DNA of 32,000 bases from Vibrio vulnificus CMCP6 (GTDB lineage: Bacteria > Pseudomonadota > Gammaproteobacteria > Enterobacterales > Vibrionaceae): contig NC_004459.3 of the NCBI RefSeq assembly GCF_000039765.1, positions 3,226,104-3,258,103 of the forward strand, in the 5' to 3' direction. Position numbers and translations under genes: made by a program. Under the pieces are notes generated by a model that did not search any database, was not told the origin of the DNA, and saw only the letters and a program-made list of their open reading frames with translations. Position 1 is the stretch's first letter, and each line of letters opens with the position of its first letter. Of this stretch, positions 1,863-32,000 are shown one piece after another.

Positions 1863-2192
1863 TATTACGCCTCAACTGAATATTTACTCAACAGGCGCGG
1901 ACCTTATCACAAGGCAGAAAATTAAATCAGGCAAAGAAATCGGCAGATTTTGCGCGATTTCTTACATGCAAATAGGAATGAATCACATTGCTAAAAAACG
2001 CGTTACCAAACTCACAAATAAACGATACAAAACATGTAGTTATAGAAACTCACCTTTAGCTTACACTGTTATGAAAAATTAGAGAAAGCTGATATTGTGA
2101 ACATTGTTCATTTAAAATTCTTATCTTTGATACAGATAGATTCACTTGGTAACACCAATTTATTTACCATCGAAACTTATGCATCTCTTCCA

Positions 2193-2654
2193 TCATTGAC
2201 CAAGTGGTAGCGCGGTGGTGTATTTGAGTGGTTCCATAGCAAATGTCGAGGTGACGTTGGATATCCCCTCAACACTATTGACTAACTTCTTATAAAAAGT
2301 ATCGAAGTTTTTCATATCTTTGACCAACACTTTCATCATGTAGTCGTACTCACCCGCCATGCGATAGAACTCCATCACTTCCGGAAAATCATTTACCGTC
2401 GCAACGAAACGGTCATACCACGCATAAGAGTGATCACAGGTTTTAATTTGCACAAATGCGATAAATGAGAGATCTAATTTCTCTGCATTCAGCAAAGCCA
2501 CTTTCTTTTCAATAAAGCCTTCATCTTCTAAACGCTTCAGACGCTTCCAGCAAGGTGTCGTGGTGAGATTCACTTGCTCAGCCAAGTCACTCAAGGACAA
2601 GGTGCCATCCTGCTGCAATAGCGAAAGTAGCTTTAGATCAACTTTATCCAGCAT
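2193..2654 (-). CDS. ybaO: Lrp/AsnC-family transcriptional regulator (YbaO/DecR-like)
   Basis: 153 aa. N-terminal HTH ([28 protein letters not shown]) and a C-terminal RAM domain ([24 protein letters not shown]). It matches E. coli YbaO closely, as far as I recall that sequence. It is divergent from a PLP enzyme gene, as in the Salmonella ybaO-cdsH pair. Confidence 0.8.
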
Positions 2655-2677
2655 ACAATTATCAATCCGCTCAATTA

Positions 2678-2692
2678 TAGAAAATTTTTCTA
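2678..2692. promoter_or_regulatory. Candidate Lrp-family operator, 15-bp palindrome TAGAAAATTTTTCTA
   Basis: Perfect 7-bp arms around a central T. All 15 positions satisfy the E. coli Lrp SELEX consensus YAGHAWATTWTDCTR. It lies in the 129-bp divergent intergenic region, 24-38 bp upstream of the regulator start and about 92 bp upstream of the PLP-enzyme start. Confidence 0.45.
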
Positions 2693-2783
2693 CAATATAG
2701 AGACATCACCACATAAAAAGCAAAGCTTTTCTCTGCAAAGGTAGGTACTTTGTTACCGTCAATAAGAATTAAGAGAGGCCCCC

Positions 2784-3869
2784 ATGTGTACGGACCACAA
2801 CTGGATTAATAACGCGATTCGCAAGATTGAAGCTGACTTCCAACGCTCTGCTGATACCCATTTATTTAAGCTTGATCTTCCGTCTCTCGAAGGCATTGAT
2901 ATTTATCTCAAAGACGAAAGCACCCATCCAACCGGTTCGTTAAAACACCGCTTAGCGCGTTCGTTGTTTCTCTACGCGATTTGTAATGGCTGGATTGGTC
3001 CGGAAACCACCGTCATTGAATCATCTTCCGGCAGTACTGCCGTTTCAGAGGCATACTTCGCACGCTTACTGGGCTTACCTTTTATCGCGGTAATGCCGAA
3101 ATGCACCGCAAGAAAGAAAATCGAGCAAATTGAGTTTTATGGCGGTAAAGCCCATTTGGTGGATCGCTCCGATCAAATTTACGCAGAATCTCACCGCTTA
3201 GCCAAAGAGTTAAATGGTCACTATATGGATCAGTTCACGTACGCGGAGCGCGCAACGGACTGGCGTGGCAACAACAACATCGCGAACTCTATCTTCAGCC
3301 AAATGACGCTCGAAGAGCACCCAGAACCAAGCTGGATCGTGATGAGCCCGGGCACAGGCGGCACTTCGGCTACCATCGGTCGCTTTATCCGTTACCAAAA
3401 GCTGGACACCAAGCTGTGCGTGGTTGACCCAGAAAACTCGGTGTTCTTTGACTACTTCCAAAACGGTGATAAAACGATAACCGGTAATACGGGCAGTAAG
3501 ATCGAGGGCATCGGTCGTCCACGTGTTGAACCAAGCTTTATTGCTGGCGTTGTGGATGAAATGCGAAAAATCCCTGATGCCGCTTCTGTTGCGTGTACCC
3601 ACTGGGTATCTAAGCTGATTGGCCGTAAAGTTGGCGCCTCAACTGGCACAAACCTGTATGGTGTATTGCAATTGGCATGCGAAATGAAACAGCGTGGCGA
3701 GCGTGGCTCTATCGTGACCCTACTGTGTGACAGCGGAGATCGCTACTTAGACACCTACTTTAATGAAGAGTGGGTAAAAACCAACATTGGTGACATTCAA
3801 CCCTACTTAGAGCAGCTTGAAATCATTGAGCGCGATGGCTGCGTAGCCCCCATCTGCTGCCCTGCGTAA
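2784..3869 (+). CDS. PLP-dependent cysteine synthase-family enzyme (fold type II), possibly a CdsH-like cysteine desulfhydrase
   Basis: 361 aa. PLP-lysine motif [11 protein letters not shown] and glycine-rich phosphate loop [19 protein letters not shown] Shine-Dalgarno 5 nt upstream. The functional guess comes from its divergent pairing with the YbaO-like regulator. Confidence 0.75.
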
Positions 3870-8228: not shown

Positions 8229-9295
8229 TATTGCTCATCCTTCTTCGCTACGGTCTTTTGCCCTGTCGCTGCGCCGCCAATTTCTTTGACTAACACACCG
8301 TCACGCATGTTCACGATACCTTGCACGACGATTTTATCGCCGATGTTGACACCCGACTCGATCACCACTTGGTTCTCTACTCGCGCACCAAGCAGAACTT
8401 CTGTGCGTTTCGCTTTGTTGTCGCTGCCGATGACATAGACATAACGTTTGGTCCCGGAATACTCTAGTGCCTGCACCGGAATGATCGGCGCTTCAATCGC
8501 AGGGAACGCTAAGGCGGTATTGAGTAACATCCCTGGTTTCAACTGATTTTCCGGATTTTCAAACTGAATGCGCACGCGTAGGTTCAACGTTTCGGCGTTA
8601 ATCCGTGAGTCAATGCCCACCACCTTGCCAGTGAACACTTGTTTGCCCCAAGCGCTGGATGTTGCTGTCACAGGCATACCTATCGACAACATCGACAGAT
8701 AACGTTCCGGAATTCTCAGATCCAGTTGCATCAACGACAGATCGTCGAGCGTCAGTAATTCAGTGCCTGAGTTCACCAACTTGCCGCGGCTAAAATCGAC
8801 GAACCCCACCGTTCCGGCAAAAGGCGCGGTGATATGAAGATCATTCAAGTTGGCATTGGCCGCGGTCAAACGCGCTTGTGCAATCTCGACACTGGCTTTT
8901 TGCGCGTCAATTTCTGTTTGAGTAATCGCATTGCGGCTGACCAGTCGCTCAAACTCTTTCAGCTTTCTCTGCTCATCTTTTAGATAAGCTTTTGCTTCAG
9001 ATACGGCTGCTAAGGCTTTATCGTCCTCAAGCTTCACCAGCAATTGCCCTTTAGTGACATTCTGGTTGGCTTTCACTTGAATGCTTTCGACTTTGCCGGA
9101 CACTTCGGACGCAATCACCACTGACTGCACCGCTTCCAATTTGCCGACCAGCGCTAAAGATTGGCTAATTTGGTGTGTTTGCACTTCTTCGGCAACCACA
9201 GTAACAGCAGATGGCCCTCTTGGAGCAGCATGGGATAGAGAGGAAGTCCCCATAAGAGCCAGAGTAATAAATGAGATAAGAATGCGTTTTTTCAT
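8228..9295 (-). CDS. RND efflux periplasmic adaptor (membrane fusion protein, HlyD/AcrA family)
   Basis: 355 aa. Signal peptide MKKRILISFITLALMGTSSLSHA, a coiled-coil hairpin (EAKAYLKDEQRKLKEFERL...IAQARLTAANANL) and beta-barrel domains. It is translationally coupled to the pump. No outer-membrane factor gene is adjacent. Confidence 0.9.
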   Translation of the reverse strand: MKKRILISFITLALMGTSSLSHAAPRGPSAVTVVAEEVQTHQISQSLALVGKLEAVQSVVIASEVSGKVESIQVKANQNVTKGQLLVKLEDDKALAAVSEAKAYLKDEQRKLKEFERLVSRNAITQTEIDAQKASVEIAQARLTAANANLNDLHITAPFAGTVGFVDFSRGKLVNSGTELLTLDDLSLMQLDLRIPERYLSMLSIGMPVTATSSAWGKQVFTGKVVGIDSRINAETLNLRVRIQFENPENQLKPGMLLNTALAFPAIEAPIIPVQALEYSGTKRYVYVIGSDNKAKRTEVLLGARVENQVVIESGVNIGDKIVVQGIVNMRDGVLVKEIGGAATGQKTVAKKDEQ

Positions 9296-11208: not shown

Positions 11209-11388
11209 CTTTATCCTTTTGTAGTCTGATTGAAACTTTACTCACTAGTCCCCTTCTTGATACAAACCGTTTTGAAGAAAACCAGCTAACATGAATCATA
11301 CAAGCATCCTTTCATCATTGAAACGGAAACAATAGTTAGACATGTATCAGAATATTGCCGCTGTTCTATGCTTATTTTGGATGTTTTG

Positions 11389-15246: not shown

Positions 15247-16677
15247 TCAACTAAGTTGATTTTCCAGCCATACTTTAACGGCTTGCCGCGAGACTTTAAT
15301 CCCTTCCTTCAGTAACGCCTCAGGCATTAAGTAATAGGCGACTGGCCACTTAAACTTTTGCAGTTTCTCTTTTAAGTGTTGCTCATACTGCGCTCTGTTT
15401 GCTAGCGATGGCGATTGGATGACAGCAACGGGTCGATAGCCAAATTCTGCATCGGGCATGGGAACCACAATACTCTGTTCCACGCCTTCAATCTCGTTTA
15501 GCACCGCTTCAATCTCTTCGCAGTGGATGTTTTCCCCGCCAGAGATAAACTGATTGTCCGCACGGCCGATGATCTTAAGTTCCTCACCTTGCCAGACGCC
15601 TAAATCTTTACTGTCAAACCACCCATGCTCATCCACCAGCGTCGTTAGGCTACCCTGAAAGAAATAGCCTTCTGCCAAGGTTTCACCACCGATATAAATG
15701 CGCTGACCAATCAGTTGCAGTGCTCGATTTTTCAATAGATGCCCTGCGTTGCTCACGCTGTCGATCTGCTTGGCGGTCACGGTTGAAGCGGCCTCTGTCA
15801 TGCCATAGCCTAGCCAGGTCTCTATTCCTTTACGCTGCGCCGCTCGGGCCAAGGCATGCTCCACATGACTCCCCCCCAGCAAAACATGGCTCAGTTGCAA
15901 AGGCGTGTTGTCATCAAGCAGGCGCTTCAACTGAGTCGCGACGAGAGACGCGTGTGTCACCCCTTGAATGTCCTCAGACAAAGCGCCATGCCCCACTTTC
16001 AAACATGCGCCGGCCAACAACCAGCGATAAACAATAGCCATGCCAGAAACATGATACAGCGGCAGGGAGAGCAACCACGTATCCTGCTGAGTAAAACAGA
16101 ACTCTTCTAACAATCCTTGTGCTGACGCGAAATGCTGCCGATGAGTATGAGCCACCGCTTTGGGATTGCCCGTGGAACCAGAGGTAAAAATGATGGTAGC
16201 AAGTTGATCGGCGCGATAATCGCAAACGTGGTTGCTAGGCATCGAGTTAAGATGATCCGAGGCGAGTGAGATTTCTAGCAGTACATTACGACGATCGTGA
16301 GAGCAAGCCGAGCGGGTCTGCACATCAACGTTAGGATCAAGCCAAATAAAGCGCGTTTGCTGCTCACGGTAAAGCGTATCAAGCTTTGCTGAGAACATTG
16401 CAATTGATTGCGGCATGATGATCGCCACCACAGCCCCCAGTTGATGCGCAGCGAGCAAGATAAGCACCATATCAACATGGTTTTTACCCAGCAGAGTGAT
16501 GACATCTCCACGAGTCACCCCTTGCGCACCAAGAACCGCCGCTAAACGTTCAATCTCGTCGTTCAGTTGTTGCCAGTTGAATTGATAACGTGATGAGTTC
16601 AGCGCCATAGAAAATGGGCTCTTCTGAGCCCAATATTTCCACAATGGTTGTTCACTGACCAATGCCGTTTCACCCAT
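15247..16677 (-). CDS. menE: O-succinylbenzoate-CoA ligase MenE
   Basis: AMP-binding motif IIFTSGSTGNPKAV, and the last gene in the men operon order. The ORF track extends to 16740, but the ATG at 16677-16675 overlaps the menC stop (TAATG). That start gives 476 aa, closer to the length of E. coli MenE (about 450 aa). Confidence 0.85.
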   Translation of the reverse strand: MGETALVSEQPLWKYWAQKSPFSMALNSSRYQFNWQQLNDEIERLAAVLGAQGVTRGDVITLLGKNHVDMVLILLAAHQLGAVVAIIMPQSIAMFSAKLDTLYREQQTRFIWLDPNVDVQTRSACSHDRRNVLLEISLASDHLNSMPSNHVCDYRADQLATIIFTSGSTGNPKAVAHTHRQHFASAQGLLEEFCFTQQDTWLLSLPLYHVSGMAIVYRWLLAGACLKVGHGALSEDIQGVTHASLVATQLKRLLDDNTPLQLSHVLLGGSHVEHALARAAQRKGIETWLGYGMTEAASTVTAKQIDSVSNAGHLLKNRALQLIGQRIYIGGETLAEGYFFQGSLTTLVDEHGWFDSKDLGVWQGEELKIIGRADNQFISGGENIHCEEIEAVLNEIEGVEQSIVVPMPDAEFGYRPVAVIQSPSLANRAQYEQHLKEKLQKFKWPVAYYLMPEALLKEGIKVSRQAVKVWLENQLS

Positions 16678-17666
16678 TATGAATGCCACACCAATTGCTG
16701 TTCTTCTAACGAGGCGATCGGCAGCGAGCATTTCGGCCATCCCACCATTAACTGCGATTGAAACAAACTTATGGTGTCCAAGCCCGGCGTCACGTCAGGC
16801 AACTGCCATTTGGCAAAACGCGCTAACTGGGTAAGCCCTAAACTTGATTCGATACTTGAACTGATGACCGCTTTGATGCCCAAAGAGTGCGCTTTTTTTA
16901 TCAGCGCAATACAACGAGGCAATGAACCGATCAACGTTGGTTTGATGACGATCGCTTTCACGCCCGTGAGATCGTCAAGCGCAAAGTCAGGTCGGTGCAG
17001 CGCGTGTTGTAAGGTTTCATCCCATGCAATCGCAATCCCGGTGTTGATAGCAAAAGAGAGGCTATCTCCGGGCTTTTGGCAGGGCTCTTCGATAAACACG
17101 ATCCGCTGACGCAAAGAGGGGGTGATGTACTTGGCAAATTGCTGCGCTTTTTCTGGCGTCCAAGCACGATTGGCATCCAGTCGCAGTGTGAGATCTGGGA
17201 TGCTTTCCAAGAACAAGTTGACCAGCATGCCATCACGAATTGGTTCGTACAAACCCACTTTGACTTTGGCGACTTTCTCACCTTGCATCGCATTCAATAC
17301 CGGAATGAGTTCATCGGGATCGCCAGTACAAAGTGGCGCGGGCAAATAGTGCCCATCGCGAGGCAACTTCCCTTCCAACTCATACATCGCGGTGGAAAGA
17401 CCAAACGCAACGGAAGGCAGTAAGGCGTCGTAATCGATGGGATGATCGGTGTTCATCCACAACTCAAGCTGTGCTTGCGCTTCAATGCCCGCTTCTTCTA
17501 TGGTCTCTAAGCTAAATCCTGGTAATGGTGAAACTTCGCCATACCCTTTTTGACCGTTCATGTTCAGCTCAATAATGTAGCCAACACGCTCCGTCAGTTT
17601 CTCATCTCTTAGCACAACACCGCTGTCCATTGGCAAGGTGTAGCGGTACAGTTTGGCTGATTTCAT
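16677..17666 (-). CDS. menC: O-succinylbenzoate synthase MenC (enolase superfamily)
   Basis: 329 aa. The size and its position between menB and menE fit. Metal-ligand regions typical of the MR/MLE subgroup are present (LRLDANRAW, FIEEP, IAWDE). Confidence 0.85.
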   Translation of the reverse strand: MKSAKLYRYTLPMDSGVVLRDEKLTERVGYIIELNMNGQKGYGEVSPLPGFSLETIEEAGIEAQAQLELWMNTDHPIDYDALLPSVAFGLSTAMYELEGKLPRDGHYLPAPLCTGDPDELIPVLNAMQGEKVAKVKVGLYEPIRDGMLVNLFLESIPDLTLRLDANRAWTPEKAQQFAKYITPSLRQRIVFIEEPCQKPGDSLSFAINTGIAIAWDETLQHALHRPDFALDDLTGVKAIVIKPTLIGSLPRCIALIKKAHSLGIKAVISSSIESSLGLTQLARFAKWQLPDVTPGLDTISLFQSQLMVGWPKCSLPIASLEEQQLVWHS

Positions 17667-22714: not shown

Positions 22715-23929
22715 ATGCAAAATATCGGGATGTCGTCAAAACTCGACAATGTCTGCTATGACATCAGGGGTCCTGTACTCAAACATGCTAAGCGCATGGA
22801 AGAAGAAGGGCATAAAATCCTTAAGCTAAATATTGGAAACCCCGCCCCATTTGGCTTTGACGCCCCTGATGAAATTCTGGTCGATGTGATTCGTAACTTG
22901 CCTACGTCGCAAGGTTACTGCGATTCAAAAGGCATCTACTCAGCACGTAAAGCCGTGGTACAGCACTACCAACGCAAAGGCATTCGTTCTCTCGATGTGG
23001 AAGATGTCTACGTGGGCAATGGCGTCTCTGAGCTGATCGTGATGGCCATGCAAGCACTGCTTAACAACGGTGACGAAATGCTGGTTCCAGCACCAGACTA
23101 CCCATTATGGACCGCTGCCGTGGCACTTTCGGGTGGTAAAGCGGTGCATTACCTCTGTGATGAGCAAGCAGACTGGTACCCTGATCTGGATGATATGCGC
23201 AAAAAAATCACGCCTAAGACTCGTGGTATTGTACTCATCAACCCAAATAACCCAACGGGTGCCGTCTACAGCCGCGATTTTCTACTGGAAGTGATCGAAA
23301 TCGCGCGTCAACACAAGCTGATGATTTTCGCCGATGAAATCTACGACAAGGTGTTGTACGACGGAGCGGTTCACACCTCAGTCGCGACCTTAACTGACGA
23401 TGTGCTGGTGATGACGTTTAACGGCCTATCAAAAGCCTATCGCGTATGTGGTTTCCGTGGTGGTTGGATGTTTATGACCGGACCAAAACATTTAGCGCAA
23501 GGCTATGTTAACGGTTTGGACATGCTGGCTTCGATGCGCCTGTGCGCCAACGTGCCAATGCAACACGCGATTCAAACTGCCTTGGGGGGCTATCAGAGCA
23601 TCAATGAATTGATCTTACCTGGCGGTCGTTTATTGGAGCAACGTGATCGCGCATGGGAGTTGATCAACCAAATCCCTGGCGTTTCATGTGTGAAACCAAA
23701 AGGCGCAATGTATCTGTTCCCTAAGATTGATACGAAAAAATACAGCATCAAAGATGACCAAAAGATGGTTTTTGATTTTCTCGTTCAAGAAAAAGTGTTG
23801 TTAGTGCAGGGTTCTGGATTCAACTGGCCAAAACCAGACCACTTCCGCATTGTCACTCTACCGCATATCGAAGATCTCGAAACCGCCATTGGCCGCTTTG
23901 AACGTTTCTTACATGGCTATAGCCAGTAG
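22715..23929 (+). CDS. alaA: Glutamate-pyruvate aminotransferase AlaA (YfbQ)
   Basis: 404 aa. Near-collinear identity with E. coli AlaA as I recall it (SSKLDNVCYDIRGPVL, LKLNIGNPAPFGFDAPDEILVDVIRNLP, NGLSKAYRVCGFR with the PLP lysine). It sits upstream of yfbR, as in E. coli. Confidence 0.92.
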   Translation: MQNIGMSSKLDNVCYDIRGPVLKHAKRMEEEGHKILKLNIGNPAPFGFDAPDEILVDVIRNLPTSQGYCDSKGIYSARKAVVQHYQRKGIRSLDVEDVYVGNGVSELIVMAMQALLNNGDEMLVPAPDYPLWTAAVALSGGKAVHYLCDEQADWYPDLDDMRKKITPKTRGIVLINPNNPTGAVYSRDFLLEVIEIARQHKLMIFADEIYDKVLYDGAVHTSVATLTDDVLVMTFNGLSKAYRVCGFRGGWMFMTGPKHLAQGYVNGLDMLASMRLCANVPMQHAIQTALGGYQSINELILPGGRLLEQRDRAWELINQIPGVSCVKPKGAMYLFPKIDTKKYSIKDDQKMVFDFLVQEKVLLVQGSGFNWPKPDHFRIVTLPHIEDLETAIGRFERFLHGYSQ

Positions 23930-23985: not shown

Positions 23986-24009
23986 TAACTGCGTTTTGAG
24001 GTGACTATC

Positions 24010-24243
24010 GTGCAAGAAAGCCATTTTTTCGCTCATTTGGCTCGTATGAAGCTAATTCAACGCTGGCCATTAATGCGCTCTGTCTCCAGTGAGAATGTCT
24101 CTGAGCACAGTTTGCAGGTCGCCTTTGTTGCCCATGCTTTAGCGCTGATCAAAAACAAGAAGTTTGGTGGTCACATCAATGCAGAGCGGGTGGCCGTGTT
24201 GGCCATGTATCACGATAGTAGTGAGGTTTTGACTGGTGATTAG
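24010..24243 (+). pseudogene. yfbR: 5' fragment of yfbR (HD-domain 5'-deoxynucleotidase), truncated by an insertion
   Basis: The product (M)[22 protein letters not shown]...[15 protein letters not shown]...[13 protein letters not shown] aligns with residues 1 to about 78 of the 199-aa E. coli YfbR. It then hits a TAG at 24241-24243 supplied by the foreign DNA. The likely start is the GTG at 24010, with GAGG 9 nt upstream. The ORF track starts at 24001. Confidence 0.85.
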
Positions 24244-24284
24244 TTCGTTTTTCTAATATGAGTAAACCAGTGACTTAGTTCGTT
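24236..24284 (+). repeat. Direct repeat TTAGTTCGTT (x2, 35 bp apart) at the element terminus
   Basis: GTGATTAGTTCGTT at 24236-24249 spans the junction. GTGACTTAGTTCGTT lies at 24270-84. The exact 10-mer is at 24240-24249 and 24275-24284. Confidence 0.6.
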
Positions 24285-24326
24285 AATACACATAAGTTAC
24301 CATTAGACTATTGTAAGGATATTCAG

Positions 24327-24926
24327 TTGAAAAAATCACAAAGTACATTCATGGCATGGGTGACACGTATGCCATTAATAAAACGCTGGGCATTAATGCA
24401 CTGCTTTCAAGAAGAAAATGTTTCAGAACATTCTCATCAGGTTGCGGTAATAGCTCACTTATTAACTGTCATTAAAAACAAACGATATGGCGGTAACTTA
24501 AATCCAGAAAAAGCTGCAGTTACCGCCATTTATCATGAAATATCAGAAACAAAACTTCAGGATATAAATTCAAAAACCAAGTACCACAGCCCTGAATTTA
24601 CAGCAGCATTTAAAAAACTTGAAGATATTGCAGAAAAAGAATGTTTAGAAACATTACCAGAGGATTTACGTAATGAGTTCTCAGATTTACTTGTTCAAAA
24701 AAATGTAGACGCTGAATATAAAGCGATTGTAAAAGCAGCAGATATTCTATCAGCTTATATAAAGACTCTAAACGAACTTCGATTTAACAATGATGAATTT
24801 TTACATGTCAAAAAAGGACTTGATCCAAAAATTAAAAGACTTATTACTGAAATGCCTGAAGTAAAAGATTTTATGGATGTATTTTGTGATAGTTGCACTA
24901 CTACGTTTGACAAAATATCAGGATAA
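24327..24926 (+). CDS. Element-encoded full-length YfbR-like HD-domain nucleotidase paralog
   Basis: 199 aa with a TTG start and an AAGGA Shine-Dalgarno 7 nt upstream. It is collinear with YfbR over its whole length (MPLIKRWALM, ENVSEHSHQVA, YGGNLNPEKAAV, KAADILSAYIK, ELRFNNDEF). It is strongly diverged from the host fragment and has AT-rich codon usage. Confidence 0.8.
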   Translation: MKKSQSTFMAWVTRMPLIKRWALMHCFQEENVSEHSHQVAVIAHLLTVIKNKRYGGNLNPEKAAVTAIYHEISETKLQDINSKTKYHSPEFTAAFKKLEDIAEKECLETLPEDLRNEFSDLLVQKNVDAEYKAIVKAADILSAYIKTLNELRFNNDEFLHVKKGLDPKIKRLITEMPEVKDFMDVFCDSCTTTFDKISG

Positions 24927-25244
24927 ATAATACCTCTCGGTATCTATAGAGTTTTAAAAAAAAGCAGAATCTGTAATCACGCATAACTTCATCACACATG
25001 CGTTATCAATATGAGTAACGTATGTAAAATGTGTTTTAACTCAAACTTTTACATAAAATCAACACATCAAAATTTACATACAACGCCAAGTTTGGTAACG
25101 TAAAATTGTAAAGGTTATCGTCACCTAGCCCGACTCAAGGCAAAGACGATAGTTTTGAATAGACAAAGTAATCACTTTTCAGTGGCATTTTGCATGAGAG
25201 TCGCATAGCAAACTTCAATGCTGCACTACGACCAAGGTGAAACT

Positions 25245-25829
25245 ATGTCTAAAAACCATTCATTACCTCAAATTTCTCCATCCGACATCTTTAAGTTAAA
25301 AGCAAAACAATTTTCATTGTTAATAACCAAAATATCAGGTTTTAGTAATATACCGTCAAAAAAAAGGTATGATTGGTTAGCTCATGCTCTAGGTTATAAA
25401 GACCACAATGATTTATTACACTCTAATTATCTTAGAAGAATTACTGATAACCGTAATATCCTAAATATTTTTAGTAATAAAAAACAACGAGAAGACATAA
25501 TTAATATTTTCTGCTCTAACCTTCCTGACGTATCAAAGAAACATATAAGTGATGCTACTATTTTAATGGCTATTATAGAAAAGCCAGAATATAAAAAGTT
25601 ACTATTTTCACTAATACATAGTGGAATTAGATACCCCTCAATTTCTGGGTTAATTACACCTAAAAATAATAAAATAATCACATATAAATTAAACATCCCA
25701 AGAATAAAATCAGCACACCAAAGCCTACCAAATAACACCATCAACAAAAACCATATATTTTCGTTTTCAAAATTTCGTGAAGATTATGTTAAAAACACAT
25801 TATCAGAAAACTTAACGACAAATAAATGA
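25245..25829 (+). CDS. Hypothetical protein, lead gene of the recombinase operon
   Basis: The ORF track starts at 25218. The ATG at 25245 has an AAGGTGA Shine-Dalgarno. The stop overlaps the next start (ATGA at 25826-25829). No family recognised. Confidence 0.5.
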   Translation: MSKNHSLPQISPSDIFKLKAKQFSLLITKISGFSNIPSKKRYDWLAHALGYKDHNDLLHSNYLRRITDNRNILNIFSNKKQREDIINIFCSNLPDVSKKHISDATILMAIIEKPEYKKLLFSLIHSGIRYPSISGLITPKNNKIITYKLNIPRIKSAHQSLPNNTINKNHIFSFSKFREDYVKNTLSENLTTNK

Positions 25830-27703
25830 AATATAGATTTGGTGAAATGGGAAATAAAAAAGTATCTATCGGAAACTTATCCGCAAAAATAATAAGTGGG
25901 AAAAACATAAGTATCGGTGATAAAAGTGCACTTGGTGAATTAATTAAATATTTAAAAAAAGAGAATAAAAGTAAATTAATAACAACCAACTTTGATGATG
26001 TTGAATTTCTTAAATTTCTGAAATATTTATCTACGATTAAAACGACAAAACGCCGATATCAAATTTCTGTTGCAGTAAGACGCCTTATTGCTGAAGAATT
26101 TCACAACGGAGTTGTTTTCACTATATCACCCGACGAATGGCCTGTTCCGGAAAAACCGAGACCAACGCATTTTCAACCACTAAGCTCAGAACAAATAGTC
26201 AAATTGGAAGAATTTCTAAGAGAAGAAATTGACGTTGCTTATAAGAAAGATGAAATTTTTCAGAGTGCCCGAAAATCAGGAGTGGTTAGCAACAAAATCG
26301 GCATCGACTTTTGGCACCGAGCTAACCCAGATCCAGCGTTACCTAGATTTACTGACTGGCATGAAAGCCTAAAAAATGCCATTGCTACAATATATTCTAT
26401 TCATCCAAATTTTCCTAATAATGCATCAAATGAAGATTTGGCAGAAAATGGAAAATTTTATATTCCCAAAGACCTTACATATACAAATCTTACAACAACA
26501 TTTAAAACCCTCGCAAAGAGAATGGTCATGCAAAACATTCCTGGGTACACTTCATTTGTATTAGAAGCCCCAGAACTAACATATACAAAATTAATATCAT
26601 ATATCTACCCGGATTTACGTGAACTGATCGCTATTAAAATAGCGATTTGCTTCGAAACTGGTTGGTCACCCGATATCACCGAACGAATAGATCCAGATGA
26701 TTATATTTATGACCCAATTCCTATGGAAAATGACTGGGTATTTATTAAATCAACAAAAGCAAAGGGAGCTTCTGTAAATAAGAAAACAAGACTTCGCGAA
26801 CAGAGATTGATGATTCATCCTAGTTCAAAAACTGATAAATACAGTGCGTATAATTTAATAAAATTACTAGTAAAAAGAACTTCAACATTACGAAAAGGAC
26901 ATTTATACGAGAAAGCAACTACAGATCTTGACGTTCACCCTGCATTCATAAGTTTAGTAGTAAATGCTGGTCTAAAATTTGTAGCGCATTACCCATGCCG
27001 TAAAGGTGTTAATAGAAGTTCAAGTAGCAAGTTCATTGAAAAAAGTATTGGGTATAAGTTGGATCTAAGACGACTCAGGCCAACTCGATTGTATCTAAAT
27101 GAAAAAGAAAAAAAGCTGCCGCTATTGCTTCAAGTCGCGCTATTTGGGCACTCAACATCTGCAATTACTGACGAGGTTTATAAAGACAACTCCCACTTCC
27201 AACAGCTAAGAAATGACAAACTAGCAATGGAATTAGATAGTATATTCGACAGTATTCGTGATGGTTCTTTCAAAGGAAAACTAGTTCCATTAAAACAAAG
27301 AACATGTATCAAAAAAAAGATAATAAATATCTATACAAACCACAATGGCGAGTCACCATTAGCAATCTGTAATAACCCATACTACCCCACCTGGCACTTG
27401 TCTGATGGTGGACAAATTCCCAGATCAAATAAACCATGCAAACAATTTAACAAATGTCTTACGTGTCAACAATCATCCGTTACCAGTGACAACATTCCAT
27501 TTGTAGTAGATAGATTCCTCTATTTAGATCAGAAACGACGCTCAATGCGAAGTGACCAGTTTGATTGCATGTATAGGGAAGAATATGAAGCAGCAAAAGA
27601 AGTCATCGAATCATGGCCTTATCAAGAAGATATTCAAGAAGCTGAGTTGAGAAACGCTGTTGATGGATACCTACTTCCACCTATTATTTCAGAGAGTAAC
27701 TAA
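25826..27703 (+). CDS. Large (625 aa) tyrosine-recombinase-fold protein with an apparently incomplete catalytic set
   Basis: Box II-like LRRLRPTRLY and LFGHSTSAITDEVYKD (His and the candidate Tyr nucleophile) are present. The box I position reads FETGWSPDI, with Ser where the TGxR arginine is expected. A C-terminal extension of about 170 aa carries a Cys cluster. Confidence 0.65.
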   Translation: MKYRFGEMGNKKVSIGNLSAKIISGKNISIGDKSALGELIKYLKKENKSKLITTNFDDVEFLKFLKYLSTIKTTKRRYQISVAVRRLIAEEFHNGVVFTISPDEWPVPEKPRPTHFQPLSSEQIVKLEEFLREEIDVAYKKDEIFQSARKSGVVSNKIGIDFWHRANPDPALPRFTDWHESLKNAIATIYSIHPNFPNNASNEDLAENGKFYIPKDLTYTNLTTTFKTLAKRMVMQNIPGYTSFVLEAPELTYTKLISYIYPDLRELIAIKIAICFETGWSPDITERIDPDDYIYDPIPMENDWVFIKSTKAKGASVNKKTRLREQRLMIHPSSKTDKYSAYNLIKLLVKRTSTLRKGHLYEKATTDLDVHPAFISLVVNAGLKFVAHYPCRKGVNRSSSSKFIEKSIGYKLDLRRLRPTRLYLNEKEKKLPLLLQVALFGHSTSAITDEVYKDNSHFQQLRNDKLAMELDSIFDSIRDGSFKGKLVPLKQRTCIKKKIINIYTNHNGESPLAICNNPYYPTWHLSDGGQIPRSNKPCKQFNKCLTCQQSSVTSDNIPFVVDRFLYLDQKRRSMRSDQFDCMYREEYEAAKEVIESWPYQEDIQEAELRNAVDGYLLPPIISESN

Positions 27704-29646
27704 TGAAACTAATAAACTTTGGCGAGATCAACATTGATAAAGACATTCAAATATCAGAAGAAATAAATTTCAAATATAATGTTTGGAGAATTCAATATTC
27801 ACAATCAGAACATATATCACTAAACTTTGAAAATTTTAGTGAAAATAATAATGTATCTAACTATAACGATTTGGTAATTTTAATAAAAATACTAACTTAT
27901 TATGAATTCCCTAAATTATTCAATTTAAACATAACCAGTTGGTTGACAACAAATCATCGCCATTCATATTTTATTAATGTCGCTAAAAATTTTCTCCTTG
28001 ATTCTGGATTTACATCTAGAAAAATGCTTTCTAATATTACTTTAAGTCAATGTAAAGGATATATTGAAGATTGCATTTCACTATTTAAAAAAAGAATACC
28101 AGGTTCAATAACAAAACTGGATAGTGCAATATATTTTTTTGACAGATGGAGTGAATTATCTCACAAAAAAAGGTTACCAAAAGAATTCAGATTTGAATAC
28201 GATAAGTATGATATTTTAGATAAAGAAAAACGTGCTGAACTAAGAACTCTCAAAGATGAACAATGCGATCCATGGCAACCATTGGATTCAGAAATTGTAA
28301 AATCCGTTTTCGATGAATCATTAAAATATATACAAACTTTATCTCCAACAATTATTAAATGCTCCAATTTAGTAAAAGAAAAAGGACGACGAGACGATGG
28401 TTCTTCTTGGGGAACCATAAGAAAAGATGGTCGTACAAAACATATTTTTAAAGTACTCGAGAACATGGAAATTCCAGACATATATGATGGAGTTAAACTT
28501 TTCAATTTTAAGCCTGTAACCAAAGAGGTTACTTCTTTAGGTTACGCCAGTGGGAAGCAAGATAGAACAACAATACCAACCAATGAAATACGGCCAGCAG
28601 TTATAAAACTAAAACGAAGTTGTATATTTATTATAGGGTTATTTACTGGTTTAAGGCGTCGTGAGATTGCATCACTAAAGGCTAAGCCAGCATATAAAAA
28701 AAATGATTGTTTATACTTAGATATTATACGTTTTAAGCAAGCCGCCGATTCAGAACAAGAAGGTGAAGAAGATAGTATCCCTATACCAAAAATTGTTGGT
28801 GATGCTATTGATATATTAATTGAATTATTTGCTATCAGCCGAAAGACATTAAATAGCCAATATCTTTTGGTAACAGATATGCCTTCTAAAAAGAATTTCG
28901 AAAAAATAAAAATTGATACAATTACAAAAGACATTAGAAAAATAGTCGCTGATATGACAGATGTAACAGATGCTCACCCACACCAGCTGCGAAAAACTAT
29001 CGCATGGTTACTGATTTCTAGAAGTGAAAAAAACATTGATCTTATTCGTCAGCTCTTTGGTCATAAAAGTTATGGTATGACACTTCGATATATAATGCGC
29101 AACGAATTAATGGTAGAGAGTGTAATAGAGTTGTTAGAACACAACTACACAGAAGATCTACAAGAAATATTCGAGGCTATCAATAATAATAATACAGCGG
29201 GAGATCTATCAGATAAAATCAAAAAACGTATGGAAGAGCAAATTTATCCAGGTAGCATATTGGTAACCGATATTGAATCCTATGTGCGTGAATCACTAAA
29301 AGCTGGTATACCTTTGTTCGTATCGAGAGTCCCCATTGGTGGTTTCTGCATAAACGCGGGTAATGAAGATTCTATCCCACCATGTATGATGAAAACCAAT
29401 TCAAAAAGACCATGCGTTGATTTCTGTAACTACAAAGTGTGTGATTACCTAATTTTTAATGATGAATCAATTTCTAATATTCACTCTCAAATTAACTACT
29501 ACAAACAAAAGTTAAGCTATCTAGATGAATCAAGCAATGAAAAAGTTGTGACTTATTATCAAAAAGAAATTCTTGAACACAGAGAGCTTCTTGAGAGATT
29601 AGAAAATAAGAAAAATAACCAGAATTTTAAAAAGGCTCAATTATGA
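27703..29646 (+). CDS. Large (647 aa) tyrosine recombinase/integrase
   Basis: Canonical motifs: box I GLFTGLRRREIASL, box II AHPHQLRKTIAW, and LFGHKSYGMTLRYIM (His and Tyr nucleophile). It has a TAATG overlap with the upstream gene and a C-terminal Cys-rich extension. Confidence 0.85.
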   Translation: MKLINFGEINIDKDIQISEEINFKYNVWRIQYSQSEHISLNFENFSENNNVSNYNDLVILIKILTYYEFPKLFNLNITSWLTTNHRHSYFINVAKNFLLDSGFTSRKMLSNITLSQCKGYIEDCISLFKKRIPGSITKLDSAIYFFDRWSELSHKKRLPKEFRFEYDKYDILDKEKRAELRTLKDEQCDPWQPLDSEIVKSVFDESLKYIQTLSPTIIKCSNLVKEKGRRDDGSSWGTIRKDGRTKHIFKVLENMEIPDIYDGVKLFNFKPVTKEVTSLGYASGKQDRTTIPTNEIRPAVIKLKRSCIFIIGLFTGLRRREIASLKAKPAYKKNDCLYLDIIRFKQAADSEQEGEEDSIPIPKIVGDAIDILIELFAISRKTLNSQYLLVTDMPSKKNFEKIKIDTITKDIRKIVADMTDVTDAHPHQLRKTIAWLLISRSEKNIDLIRQLFGHKSYGMTLRYIMRNELMVESVIELLEHNYTEDLQEIFEAINNNNTAGDLSDKIKKRMEEQIYPGSILVTDIESYVRESLKAGIPLFVSRVPIGGFCINAGNEDSIPPCMMKTNSKRPCVDFCNYKVCDYLIFNDESISNIHSQINYYKQKLSYLDESSNEKVVTYYQKEILEHRELLERLENKKNNQNFKKAQL

Positions 29647-30743
29647 CTTTAAAGGAAAAGGATGTAGAAAATGTAATTGATATCCTTATCTCATCAGATT
29701 CTTTTAATGTAAAAAAACTAGCTGAGTATCTTAAGGTTTCTCGGTCCTATTTATATAAAGAATTCCGACATCTACTACCTAAACCAGCAAGTATCACCCA
29801 AAAAAGAATAGAAAATGCTATTTTACGAATTAGACAACGGACAGGTCGCTCTCTCTTAACTATTTCGGAAGTAGCAATAGAATCAGGAGTAAGCAGGCAA
29901 AGTATTTCTAGAGATTACAGTCATCTTTTATCTATGATAAAAGGTAAAAAATCTGTTGATATAATTCCTAATTCAACAACAGAATCAGAAGAAAAAATTA
30001 AATTCCTAGAAGATCAAATTTCTTCTCTTAGCATGAAAAATGAAGAATATGAAGAGAATATTAAGTTAAAGGTTTACTCCGATATGATGAAGCAAGATCT
30101 TGCTTCATTTACAGCCCAAAAGGACAAAGCAAATGCTATCAAGCTACAAAATCAAAATGATGAAATAATAGCTATTAATAAACAACAAATATCAGAACTA
30201 GCGGATCTACGATCGCAATTATCAGAATTAAAAAGAAAGTCTAAAACAATCATTCCCGGGTGTAATATTATTGCTCATATCAAACCAGATTATAGTAGTA
30301 TTTCATCAAAAATGGATTTAAAAACTTCAATGGAGATTTTCTTCGAAATAGAAGAAAAAAACATAAACGATGCCATTGATATCTGCTTCACTTCACAACC
30401 TAATTCAGTAATATTTTTTCAACCTTTTCTTAGTTGCAACTTTGAAAGTCTTGGTATTACTTTATCAAAAGGTGATGTTATTCTTATTGAAAGTAATTTT
30501 CCTCTTGCCAAGCAATTCAAAAAACTTTTACTAAATATAAGCGAAATTCCTGTCCATTCAATATCATGTAAAGGTCACGAATTACAATTGGCAAATTTCT
30601 ATTGTCGAAAGAATCACACCAATAAATTTAGCGAAGAGTTTATAGATAAGTTATATAAACTAATATCTTATCCAGATCAGAATGATGGTTTTAAATCTGT
30701 AACGCTCGTAAAGCCTAGCCCTTCTATTTCGGCGGTAAAATAG
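29643..30743 (+). CDS. Putative recombination accessory/DNA-binding protein: two HTH-like segments, a coiled coil and an unknown C-terminal domain
   Basis: 366 aa. VKKLAEYLKVSRSYLYKEF and ISEVAIESGVSRQSISRDY look like HTH units. Heptad-like stretches follow (EEKIKFLEDQISSLSMKNEEYEENIKLK and ISELADLRSQLSELKRK). It has an ATGA overlap with the upstream integrase. Confidence 0.5.
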   Translation: MTLKEKDVENVIDILISSDSFNVKKLAEYLKVSRSYLYKEFRHLLPKPASITQKRIENAILRIRQRTGRSLLTISEVAIESGVSRQSISRDYSHLLSMIKGKKSVDIIPNSTTESEEKIKFLEDQISSLSMKNEEYEENIKLKVYSDMMKQDLASFTAQKDKANAIKLQNQNDEIIAINKQQISELADLRSQLSELKRKSKTIIPGCNIIAHIKPDYSSISSKMDLKTSMEIFFEIEEKNINDAIDICFTSQPNSVIFFQPFLSCNFESLGITLSKGDVILIESNFPLAKQFKKLLLNISEIPVHSISCKGHELQLANFYCRKNHTNKFSEEFIDKLYKLISYPDQNDGFKSVTLVKPSPSISAVK

Positions 30744-30744
30744 T

Positions 30745-32000
30745 ATGCTTATTGAACGGAAATTAATTACATATCCATATGAAAGAACCGATTACTCTCA
30801 TTACATCCTAGTTTTAAAAATAAATGATAAGATAATATTGATGAGTGCTGTAAATCTATTTTTAAAAGAAAGGACATACAGAAGTTTTAAAACCAGCGAA
30901 CGGTATTCCAATATTTTAAAACGTTTCTTTCATTTTATAATAAAAAATAATGCCAACATAAGCCAAAATTTCTGGCGAGAAGTTACGGATAGCGATATTC
31001 GTGAATGGCAAGGATATATAATAAAAAAGAGAGATAATGAACACAAGAAAAGGCCAAAGGATGATACTATATATTTAGATGCTTGTATCGTTTTCGACTT
31101 CTATTCTTGGGCAGAAAGGAACCATTTTCCGGTTTTAATAAATTCAACAAGTGTTGACTGGAAATTTAATTTTCGAGATGAAAGCAAAATTTTATCAAGT
31201 AAAGGCATCCTATCAGGAAGTGTTCCAGATTATGCAAACATTGATATTCGTAACACACGAAGAAAGCAATTTAGAAGCTTTAATAATAAATCTGATACTA
31301 TAATGGAGTTTGAAAATATCATAGCTTTAGTAACATCATATAGTGATCTAGTTTATCCAGTAATGTTTCTTTTAGCACTAGCTACTGGTATGCGTGAACA
31401 GGGAGTATGCTCTTTCCCTTATATTGGAATCGGTGAAAATGATCATATTAGAACATATCCTGAAATAAAAAATTTGGTTCCCAAAGACCCCAAAGGAAAA
31501 ACTCCCAAAACATTTCCTTTCACTACTATAGAAAAAGGGAATAAAAAAAGAACTTTAAAGGTCAACATGTCTGCCTGGAAAATAATATGCAAAACATACT
31601 TACCACTTTATTACCAAAGAAAAAAATTATTTAGACAGAAATTTCCTCATAAAAACGATAATGCTGTATTCTTCTTGAATAAGGTCGGTAAACCCGTAAC
31701 ACCCAAAATGGTGTCAGATGCGACGAACCGAGCAAAAAAGAAACTTAATGACCAGCACTTTCATTGGTCATTTCACAGTACAAGGGACTGGTATGCCACA
31801 ATGTTTATTATCAAACACTTAACTCGAGAACAGATCAATGTAGCACATTATGACGCAGCTATTGAAGATGCTTTACGCAAACAACTAGGACACAGTGATA
31901 TCAGAACAACATACATGCATTACATCCGTGTAGCTTCTCTTCTGTTGGCAACACGTAATGGTGAATTAGATTTTTCGTTGGGGAATTCTGATGATTTTTG
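30745..32000 (+). CDS. Tyrosine recombinase/integrase, truncated at its 3' end by the window edge
   Basis: Not in the ORF track because it has no stop in the window. My translation from the ATG at 30745 is open to 32000 (418 codons). Motifs: LALATGMREQG (box I Arg), WSFHSTRDWYAT (HxxR) and LGHSDIRTTYMHYI (His and Tyr). It starts 1 nt after the previous stop. Confidence 0.85.
   Translation, partial: MLIERKLITYPYERTDYSHYILVLKINDKIILMSAVNLFLKERTYRSFKTSERYSNILKRFFHFIIKNNANISQNFWREVTDSDIREWQGYIIKKRDNEHKKRPKDDTIYLDACIVFDFYSWAERNHFPVLINSTSVDWKFNFRDESKILSSKGILSGSVPDYANIDIRNTRRKQFRSFNNKSDTIMEFENIIALVTSYSDLVYPVMFLLALATGMREQGVCSFPYIGIGENDHIRTYPEIKNLVPKDPKGKTPKTFPFTTIEKGNKKRTLKVNMSAWKIICKTYLPLYYQRKKLFRQKFPHKNDNAVFFLNKVGKPVTPKMVSDATNRAKKKLNDQHFHWSFHSTRDWYATMFIIKHLTREQINVAHYDAAIEDALRKQLGHSDIRTTYMHYIRVASLLLATRNGELDFSLGNSDDF

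Follow-up and report, generated by a model that had tools for sequence, protein, structure and literature searches.

We examined a 32,000-nucleotide stretch of the Vibrio vulnificus CMCP6 chromosome (NC_004459.3, positions 3,226,104 to 3,258,103; hereafter the window, with coordinates counted from its first base) and found that an AT-rich, site-specific integrative element interrupts the 5'-deoxynucleotidase gene yfbR. Our preferred reading, to which we give a probability of roughly three in four, is that the window holds the left part of an integrative island of the PDE1 family, named for an island of V. lentus, inserted in the chromosomal yfbR of V. vulnificus. The element brings its own divergent yfbR (here yfbR') and a module of four genes (B, C, D, and E) for tyrosine-recombinase-like and accessory proteins. 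New here are the replacement gene of Alteromonadales-type origin, the relations of the recombination module, the ends of the element with the import of a spacer, and a plasmid landing pad. For the right end, for the cargo, and for every biochemical role we rely on inference.

The insertion is apparent from comparison with other genomes of the same species. The aminotransferase gene alaA (22715 to 23929, plus strand; Pfam Aminotran_1_2, E = 6.5e-51), the upstream core neighbor of yfbR, is followed in the window by a 5' fragment of host yfbR (24001 to 24243, plus strand) that runs for 80 codons to the Asp of LTGD. This stump matches positions 1 to 73 of the 182 positions of PF12917 (E = 4e-33) and is 100% identical to residues 1 to 77 of V. 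vulnificus yfbR. Many V. vulnificus genomes encode an AlaA protein identical to that of the window. For comparison we used the ten places returned for it (L001 to L010, including YJ016), and at all ten an intact 194-amino-acid (aa) yfbR and a dGTPase-like gene follow alaA. The window agrees with these empty sites base for base up to position 24233 and is unrelated to them after 24240. The G+C content, 0.44 to 0.52 over positions 1 to 24000, is 0.29 to 0.36 from about 24240 to 32000 (about 31% in the element). Because conspecific genomes have empty sites, the AT-rich DNA from 24240/24241 onward is an inserted site-specific integrative element. In hosts of at least three gammaproteobacterial orders, yfbR is interrupted after one and the same Asp codon, that of EVLTGD/LPTPVKY (the slash marks the break). 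Within the host DNA, positions 1501 to 3000 show a G+C dip to 0.40 to 0.41, against 0.45 to 0.50 otherwise.

A preliminary description of this DNA, made from its letters, had already proposed the truncated yfbR, the composition break near 24241, and a site-specific target in a conserved coding segment of the gene, and all three are borne out above. It also stated that the stop codon of the stump consists of three foreign bases. The stump does end in ...SSEVLTGD followed by TAG (24241 to 24243) in the end of the element, but this point needs correction, since the T at 24240 and that at 24241 can be assigned to either partner. In an alignment with E. coli YfbR (PDB 2PAQ), the Asp of the KQAD motif, which we take to be D137 of the E. 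coli protein, falls past the break and so outside the stump.

The description of a disrupted gene holds for the host copy and is incomplete as a simple loss, since the element supplies a replacement. A second, complete yfbR, overlooked by the preliminary description, starts 83 bases inside the foreign DNA (yfbR'; 24327 to 24926, plus strand). It encodes a full-length 5'-deoxynucleotidase of 199 aa with an HE variant, matches PF12917 over positions 1 to 181 of 182 (E = 5e-62), scores 253 bits against the NCBIfam 5'-deoxynucleotidase equivalog (cutoff, 122), and can be aligned end to end with E. coli YfbR. In that alignment the residues at the positions of H33, H68, E72, D77, and D137 are conserved and the position of D69 is Glu, by what we take to be the E. 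coli numbering. The protein is 42% identical to host YfbR and lacks the target motif, reading YHEISETKLQD-INSKTKY where the host has EVLTGD/LPTPVKY. Its signature, HE...ETKLQDINSKTKY, marks an allele type nearest to native Shewanella yfbR. The closest proteins outside islands are from Alteromonadales (73 to 77% identity), and proteins of Shewanella, Aliiglaciecola, and Tatumella in the hit list are 73 to 77% identical to yfbR'. Native Shewanella yfbR (group P0134; L028 to L030, 6001 to 6609) lies in the ordinary yfbR-dGTPase position with no island. This native gene has HE and TKLQD instead of HD and VLTGD and would thus be free of the target sequence, which suggests a source for the spare gene of the element. 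Among island copies, dN of yfbR' ranges from 0.10 to 0.37 while synonymous sites are saturated, and the gene is therefore maintained by purifying selection. Between the window and a V. parahaemolyticus relative (L014, 8482 to 9078), dS of yfbR' is 0.008, whereas the whole regions, some host flank included, share ∼91% nucleotide identity; this hints that the elements of the two species exchanged the yfbR' segment recently.

The same arrangement has been described in V. lentus, where PDE1 (phage-defense element 1) inserts into yfbR, truncates it, and encodes its own distinct copy, which was kept when the element was deleted (Hussain et al., 2021, 10.1101/2021.03.26.437281). We identified our V. 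lentus loci (L015/L016) as PDE1 because published primers match them exactly: primer dPDE1/F has no mismatch at 9152 to 9171, inside the host yfbR stump, and half of primer R1 has no mismatch at 11216 to 11235, inside gene B. Amino acid identity between the window and PDE1 is 60% for B, 61% for C, 56% for D, 69% for E, and 82% for yfbR'. The element in the window is thus homologous to PDE1, and yfbR is therefore an already described insertion site; the view of the preliminary description that yfbR had no prior record as an integration site is superseded by the published V. lentus insertion. What we report is another PDE1-family element, not another sort of insertion site.

Downstream of yfbR' and an intergenic region with repeated motifs (24927 to 25217), five open reading frames (ORFs), A to E, have overlapping or abutting stops and starts, are translationally coupled, and are all intact in the window. 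Gene B (25826 to 27703, plus strand; 625 aa) has no Pfam match. Its AlphaFold2 model (pLDDT, 80) retrieved only tyrosine recombinases as top Foldseek matches in the PDB (Tn1549 Int, XerH, lambda Int, and Cre). Across 27 homologues, W280 occupies the position of the first catalytic Arg, and R418, H442, and Y452 are conserved. The model indicates a tyrosine-recombinase-like fold, and the protein has lost the first catalytic Arg; the C terminus carries a C-x5-C-x2-C motif. Gene C (27703 to 29646, plus strand; 647 aa) encodes a large tyrosine recombinase with a Cys-rich C-terminal extension (Pfam Phage_integrase, 2e-10; PHROG integrase, 4e-24) in which R318, H427, R430, H454, and Y463 are invariant. 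Gene D (29643 to 30743, plus strand; 366 aa) has weak N-terminal helix-turn-helix matches (HTH_11, HTH_7, and excisionase type, all below threshold) and is otherwise unannotated. It is kept in all relatives and, by analogy, is likely a recombination accessory factor. Gene E (30745 to 32000, plus strand), an ordinary tyrosine recombinase, is cut by the window end after 418 codons; R217, H344, R347, H383, and Y390 are invariant, and its homologues, complete at 417 to 429 aa, follow D in all relatives. Sequence searches of the PDB with B, C, and E were uninformative. With C and E both carrying the full R-H-R-H-Y set, the earlier statement that the AT-rich DNA encodes recombinases is correct. Its picture of a single integrase holds insofar as a site-specific recombinase is encoded, but the machinery is a four-protein module.

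ORF A (25218 to 25829, plus strand; 203 aa), which overlaps the start of B by 4 bp, has no match in Pfam, NCBIfam, PHROG, or PADLOC. A 69% identical homologue is present in the V. parahaemolyticus relatives, and tblastn found no match in L015, L020, L021, or L024 to L026; ORF A was found only in the sub-lineage of the window. In V. parahaemolyticus relatives L013 and L014, a paralogue of ORF A (16256 to 16696; 45% identity over 100 aa) lies directly after gene E. PADLOC gave nothing convincing on ORF A or on the cargo of the closest relative.

The left attachment site (attL) contains a 6-bp spacer, or crossover region, TGGTGA (24234 to 24239, plus strand). In the coding sequence of LTGD it corresponds to the third position of the Thr codon, all of the Gly codon, and positions one and two of the Asp codon. 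The spacer is followed by the left core-type arm C, TTAGTTCG (24240 to 24247, plus strand), the inverted repeat of the CGAACTAA of right ends; this left arm was conserved at every left junction examined. At these junctions the host sequence ...ACnGGnGA runs into TTAGTTCG, with the variants TTAATGCG in Marinobacter changyiensis and TTATTTCG in Photobacterium sagamiensis. The arm recurs in direct orientation as TTAGTTCGTT (24275 to 24284, plus strand), 35 bp inside the end and at a position conserved in relatives; this second copy is a candidate accessory binding site. The copies at 24240 to 24249 and 24275 to 24284 are the only two occurrences of TTAGTTCG in the window, a count that by itself is not above chance. 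Other motifs recur nearby: AATATGAGTAA at 24255 to 24265 in the left end and again at 25008 to 25018 upstream of ORF A, a palindrome TATGTAAAA/TTTTACATA at 25021 to 25055 adjoining the latter copy, and GTAAA(A/C)-type motifs near the ends of relatives. All of these may be operators or sites bound by accessory proteins.

We located right junctions in relatives through ORFs that hold a 3' remnant of yfbR. In a V. vulnificus locus (L031), the arm ...GCTTAAGCGAACTAA is followed by the spacer TCAGGA and the host remnant TTTGCCCACACC (in short, CGAACTAA-TCAGGA-TTTGCC). In a Vibrio locus (L036), the arm ...CCGAACTAA is followed by AGGTGA and TTTGCCAAC (CGAACTAA-AGGTGA-TTTGCC), and in Paraglaciecola T6c the arm ...CGAAATAG is followed by GTCGGA and CTTACCTAC (CGAAATAG-GTCGGA-CTTACC). 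Remnants of yfbR beginning at (D)LPTPVKY, which the preliminary description had anticipated, are thus present in all three. Remnant proteins of many Vibrio read R-T-N/K-(Q/G)-D-LPTPV, the translation of the arm CGA ACT AAn. When the left end of the window is joined to the right end of the relatives, the product is CGAACTAA-N6-TTAGTTCG, in which two 8-bp arms form a perfect inverted repeat with the 6-bp spacer between them. Inverted arms around a short spacer are the usual form of a tyrosine-recombinase core site.

The spacers differ between sites. All ten empty sites read GGGGGA where the attL of the window reads TGGTGA, and one of them (L008) shows no mismatch to the window over the 1,493 positions upstream of the spacer. 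Because all ten read GGGGGA, the TGGTGA of the window is foreign in this strain and was imported with the element. In a second V. vulnificus strain (L032), the attL spacer of a related but distinct element is GGGGGA; the identity to the window is 96% over a 6.07-kb alignment, of which about 2.2 kb are host flank. We concluded from these sequences that the spacer can be obtained from either partner, which fits recombination over a non-identical overlap resolved by replication. Because the window and L032 elements differ in both sequence and spacer, they represent two separate insertions in V. vulnificus, implying recent mobility.

One relative lies in a plasmid gene. In V. parahaemolyticus GCA_001267945 (L013), the stump in front of a 94% identical element is yfbR-like, shares only 38% identity with chromosomal yfbR, and ends in ...EVLCQD with the spacer TCAGGA. 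The 8.4 kb upstream are 99% identical, up to the junction, to pAQU1-type MOBH conjugative plasmids. On pAQU1 (L035, NC_016983.1, 114103 to 114942), the corresponding yfbR-like gene is intact (279 aa) and contains the site GAAGTTCTCTG-TCAGGA-TGTTGTGACGCCAGTAAAA (TGTTGTG...). In total, 808 plasmid records, mostly conjugative and from hosts that include Vibrio, Klebsiella, Escherichia, and Salmonella, encode a similar yfbR-like N terminus. The chromosomal element L031 has TCAGGA as the spacer of its right site (attR), and 7 of the 11 remnant ORFs examined have it too, as judged from their translation (..TNQD). Arrival of the element from a plasmid-borne copy is an attractive reading, and a pAQU1-type conjugative plasmid is a likely transfer vehicle. 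A search of PLSDB found no complete plasmid with this element; C and E matched only eight Pseudomonas megaplasmids.

Close homologues of gene B form 33 clusters, all of which come from marine Gammaproteobacteria and carry the annotation 'hypothetical'. Among 1.84 billion representatives searched with a profile, 134 matched at E values up to 1e-3. Genome contigs searched with the same profile gave seven loci, and most of the genomic context came from exact-protein look-ups. Every relative with a visible left flank (V. parahaemolyticus, V. lentus, V. nigripulchritudo, Vibrio sp. WZ-1, Photobacterium marinum, P. sagamiensis, and M. changyiensis) has yfbR cut at the same Asp codon and followed by yfbR', B, C, D, and E. 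The module and yfbR' are likewise present in Paraglaciecola T6c and on a Marinobacteraceae contig, with the left junction beyond the DNA examined; in T6c, czc metal-efflux cargo lies between yfbR' and the module, and the 3' remnant starts exactly at (D)LPTPVKY. Every relative has all four genes B to E together, over a range of three gammaproteobacterial orders. Cargo in the relatives includes type I restriction-modification genes (L015, L027, and L031) and, in L031, also BrxR-, WYL-, and VspR-domain proteins.

Several of the relatives deserve separate mention. The V. nigripulchritudo copy (L027, AP027052.1; 11520 to 12995 and 16415 to 17702) is decayed, with B in three ORFs and E in two, and its yfbR' is 99% identical to that of the window. 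A 1,519-bp contig assigned to 'Bacteriovorax sp. DB6_IX' (L022, NZ_AUNJ01000384.1) has 100% protein identity to residues 382 to 625 of B and 1 to 261 of C and is probably Vibrio prey DNA carried into the assembly of the predator. A 4,707-bp contig of a 'Mycoplasmatales bacterium' metagenome-assembled genome (L023, JBOFGK010000053.1) carries a Vibrionaceae-like yfbR stump, 85% identical to that of V. vulnificus, with yfbR', B, and C, and looks like a mis-binned contig.

The closest homologous module is found on the eight Pseudomonas megaplasmids, as genes of 784, 700, 314, and 435 aa in the same order. The hhalign probability exceeds 99% for the counterparts of B, C, and E and is 62% for gene D against the 314-aa protein. 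On P. aeruginosa pPUV-7 (L012, NZ_MT732185.1, 4085 to 12133), this sister module (G+C, 0.44 versus 0.57) abuts a PAPS-reductase-family gene that is cut directly after C-S-A-R, aligned with C-G-A-R-F-G-C-W of a longer plasmid homologue. No replacement copy was seen there, and a fragment of an efflux pump disrupts the right side.

From these observations we propose a mechanism for the movement of the element. The element would circularize to the joint CGAACTAA-N6-TTAGTTCG (in extended form, ...GCGAACTAA-N6-TTAGTTCGTTTTTC...), and the empty site after excision would read GAGGTTTTGAC-N6-TTTGCCC. Proteins C and E, helped by B and D, would then recombine the joint with a yfbR site across the 6-bp spacer. 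Because we propose that this spacer tolerates mismatches, spacers would travel between sites, as in integrative elements that circularize with a strand bias (SEs), Tn554, and Tn916. Under a heteroduplex model, the attR of the window genome would carry GGGGGA, and the right junction in that genome is predicted to read CGAACTAA-NNNNNN-TTTGCCCACACC(A/C)GTAAAATA. Throughout, yfbR' would keep the host supplied with the enzyme and would not itself be re-targetable, and the yfbR-like genes of pAQU1-type plasmids would act as landing pads between species. The cargo past the window would probably be a phage defense or other adaptive module, as in relatives.

It is important to note the points that weigh against reading the window as part of a mobile PDE1-family island. 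The right end and the cargo lie beyond position 32000, and attR, element size, and cargo are extrapolated from relatives. The predicted circular joint had no matches in a metagenome scan. The roles of the proteins are assigned by analogy, with weak or absent profile similarity to SE proteins, and the Foldseek matches of gene B are weak (best E value, 0.036; probability, 0.98). YfbR' has HE rather than the canonical HD dyad, and its enzyme activity is assumed from conservation. Finally, yfbR' itself reads CTT CAG GAT at the equivalent codons and is a second possible source of TCAGGA, so that this spacer is no proof of a plasmid origin and may be of older origin.

Within the PDE1-family reading, the B-C-D-E module may represent a separate, unnamed lineage of multi-tyrosine-recombinase transposons beside SE, GInt, Tn554, and Gamma-Mobile-Trio (GMT) islands, a tentative view to which we give slightly less than an even chance. 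Such a lineage would be marked by a rare signature protein (134 of 1.84 billion representatives) and would include, on Pseudomonas megaplasmids, a sister branch whose insertion cuts a PAPS-reductase-family gene at C-x-x-R. It would choose as target whichever motif of a housekeeping gene is most conserved, with a naturally target-free allele brought along in the yfbR branch, and would use target paralogues on conjugative plasmids as shuttle sites, with 6-bp spacer stamps recording the previous site.

Whether the element might instead be an SE turns on how far the two machineries correspond, and we consider this unlikely. The SE parts list is matched in kind: of two R-H-R-Y recombinases one is ordinary and one large, a further protein has the recombinase fold but lacks the catalytic Arg, and an accessory protein completes the set. 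SE termini are defined by a joint forming imperfect inverted repeats with a 6-bp spacer (PMC10214605), and the predicted joint, its right arm taken from relatives, likewise shows inverted repeats around 6 bp. The target of SE-6283 is likewise a gene, bcp, of which the element has a copy. We compared the proteins with those of SE-Pda04Ya311 (pAQU1) and SE-PaeBT2436 (pBT2436). IntA (429 to 545 aa) corresponds to E (about 429 aa) with an hhalign probability of 66%, and IntB (671 to 679 aa) to C (647 aa) with 63% (E = 7e-5), both weak profile links. For Tfp (576 to 614 aa) against B (625 aa) the probability is 0.3%, and for Srap (154 to 161 aa; 152 to 161 aa across the SEs compared) against the much larger D (366 aa) it is 5.6%. 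The sole specific resemblance is the C-terminal Cys motif C-x5/6-C-x2-C shared by B, the 784-aa Pseudomonas protein, and both Tfp proteins. In phmmer searches, none of SE Tfp, IntB, IntA, and Srap matched any of the 132 B-superfamily representatives returned by the representative search, most of which were matched by the 784-aa Pseudomonas protein. The SE order is intA-tfp-intB-srap, whereas here the order is tfp-like, intB-like, srap-like, and intA-like, and the module does not lie at the extreme end. In the best-studied SE, the target spacer normally stays at attL and the donor spacer goes to attR; the attL of the window carries the foreign spacer, the opposite of the usual outcome. A published SE survey had no SE in Paraglaciecola T6c, which is also absent from its tfp-srap list, and the published V. 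vulnificus SE is a different, canonical element. Identity with that element, SE-Vvu072444, was ruled out by its 1,749-bp tfp and 459-bp srap.

Less probable still is a reading in which the element has lost its mobility and is decaying, or is a classical island or prophage with a single integrase, the extra recombinase genes being irrelevant. The split B and E of the V. nigripulchritudo copy would fit such a reading, as would the unobserved circular joint and the position of the cargo beyond the window. Against these stand the five open and coupled ORFs of the window, the joint presence of B, C, D, and E in every relative, the distinct variants with different spacers in two V. vulnificus strains, the insertion of one copy (L013) in a plasmid gene, and the visible 7.8 kb of the element, in which we found no phage or conjugation genes. 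The first hypothesis here was a GMT island, a type with recombination genes at the 5' border that inserts inside genes, has inverted repeats at its insertion sites, and often brings a homologue to stand in for the interrupted gene (Mahata et al., 2024, 10.1101/2023.03.28.534373). It is effectively refuted: it was rejected on protein sizes (GmtY, about 485 aa; GmtZ, 890 to 1,000 aa; here 625, 647, 366, and about 429 aa) and on the absence of any GMT-type NCBIfam match to any ORF at E values up to 1, in a release whose GMT models were unconfirmed, while four core genes stand against the three of GMT, and the rows listed in the GMT supplementary material include no yfbR, nucleotidase, or HD-domain entry.

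Read as a PDE1-family island, the element gives V. vulnificus, a human pathogen, a chromosomal site at which defense or other adaptive cargo could be swapped while the interrupted housekeeping function is retained, and it ties this yfbR site to pAQU1-type conjugative plasmids circulating in aquaculture Vibrio. For PDE1-type islands, the comparison defines the ends, gives the crossover a length of 6 bp, and adds a recombination module of four proteins. The strategy of disrupting a conserved gene and bringing a spare has been reached with SE- and GInt-like parts in a different order and with different sequences. Exact predictions are available for the circular joint and the right junction.

The element shares traits with several known systems. 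With SEs (SE-6283, SE-6945, and SE-PaeBT2436; Nonaka 2018/2022; Idola 2023; PMC10214605), it shares a multi-protein tyrosine-recombinase machinery, inverted arms at the termini together with a 6-bp spacer that travels from site to site, and a gene target with a spare copy (bcp in the SE). Members of both groups are gammaproteobacterial, often from Vibrio, lack transfer genes of their own, and ride on MOBH plasmids. The window element differs in its permuted order with the intA-like gene last, its larger accessory protein, and the replacement gene and other DNA that precede the module; its Tfp and Srap counterparts have no detectable sequence homology to the SE proteins, and it was not caught by the SE survey. 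GInt elements, which we compared by description only, likewise have three recombinase-fold proteins, one without the first Arg, plus a small or accessory protein, and insert site-specifically, often in or at the ends of conserved genes. All four GInt proteins are required for circle formation, and excision gives att sequence variants. In contrast to the window, where D lies between C and E and the module follows yfbR' and ORF A, the ginABCD operon has its accessory gene last and lies at the 5' border, the flanking repeats are direct, imperfect, and 10 to 11 nt long, and a replacement copy of the target has not been reported. Paraglaciecola T6c is absent among the ginC/ginD matches listed. GMT islands resemble the element in intragenic insertion with a replacement homologue, defense cargo, and plasmid-mediated spread, and they differ in having three proteins of unrelated size and a circular form that excludes the flanking repeats. 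Tn554, compared by gene content, has three genes (tnpA-tnpB-tnpC), Firmicutes hosts, and no Arg-less recombinase-fold protein.

PDE1 shares with the window element the target gene and codon, a divergent yfbR at the left end, and a homologous B-C-D-E module. The two differ in host species and have diverged in sequence, the sub-lineage of the window has the extra ORF A between yfbR' and B, and the cargo of PDE1 is a type I restriction-modification system, whereas that of the window lies beyond position 32000. The recombination module, ends, and spacer of PDE1 were left unanalyzed by Hussain et al. (2021) and are new from the comparison made here.

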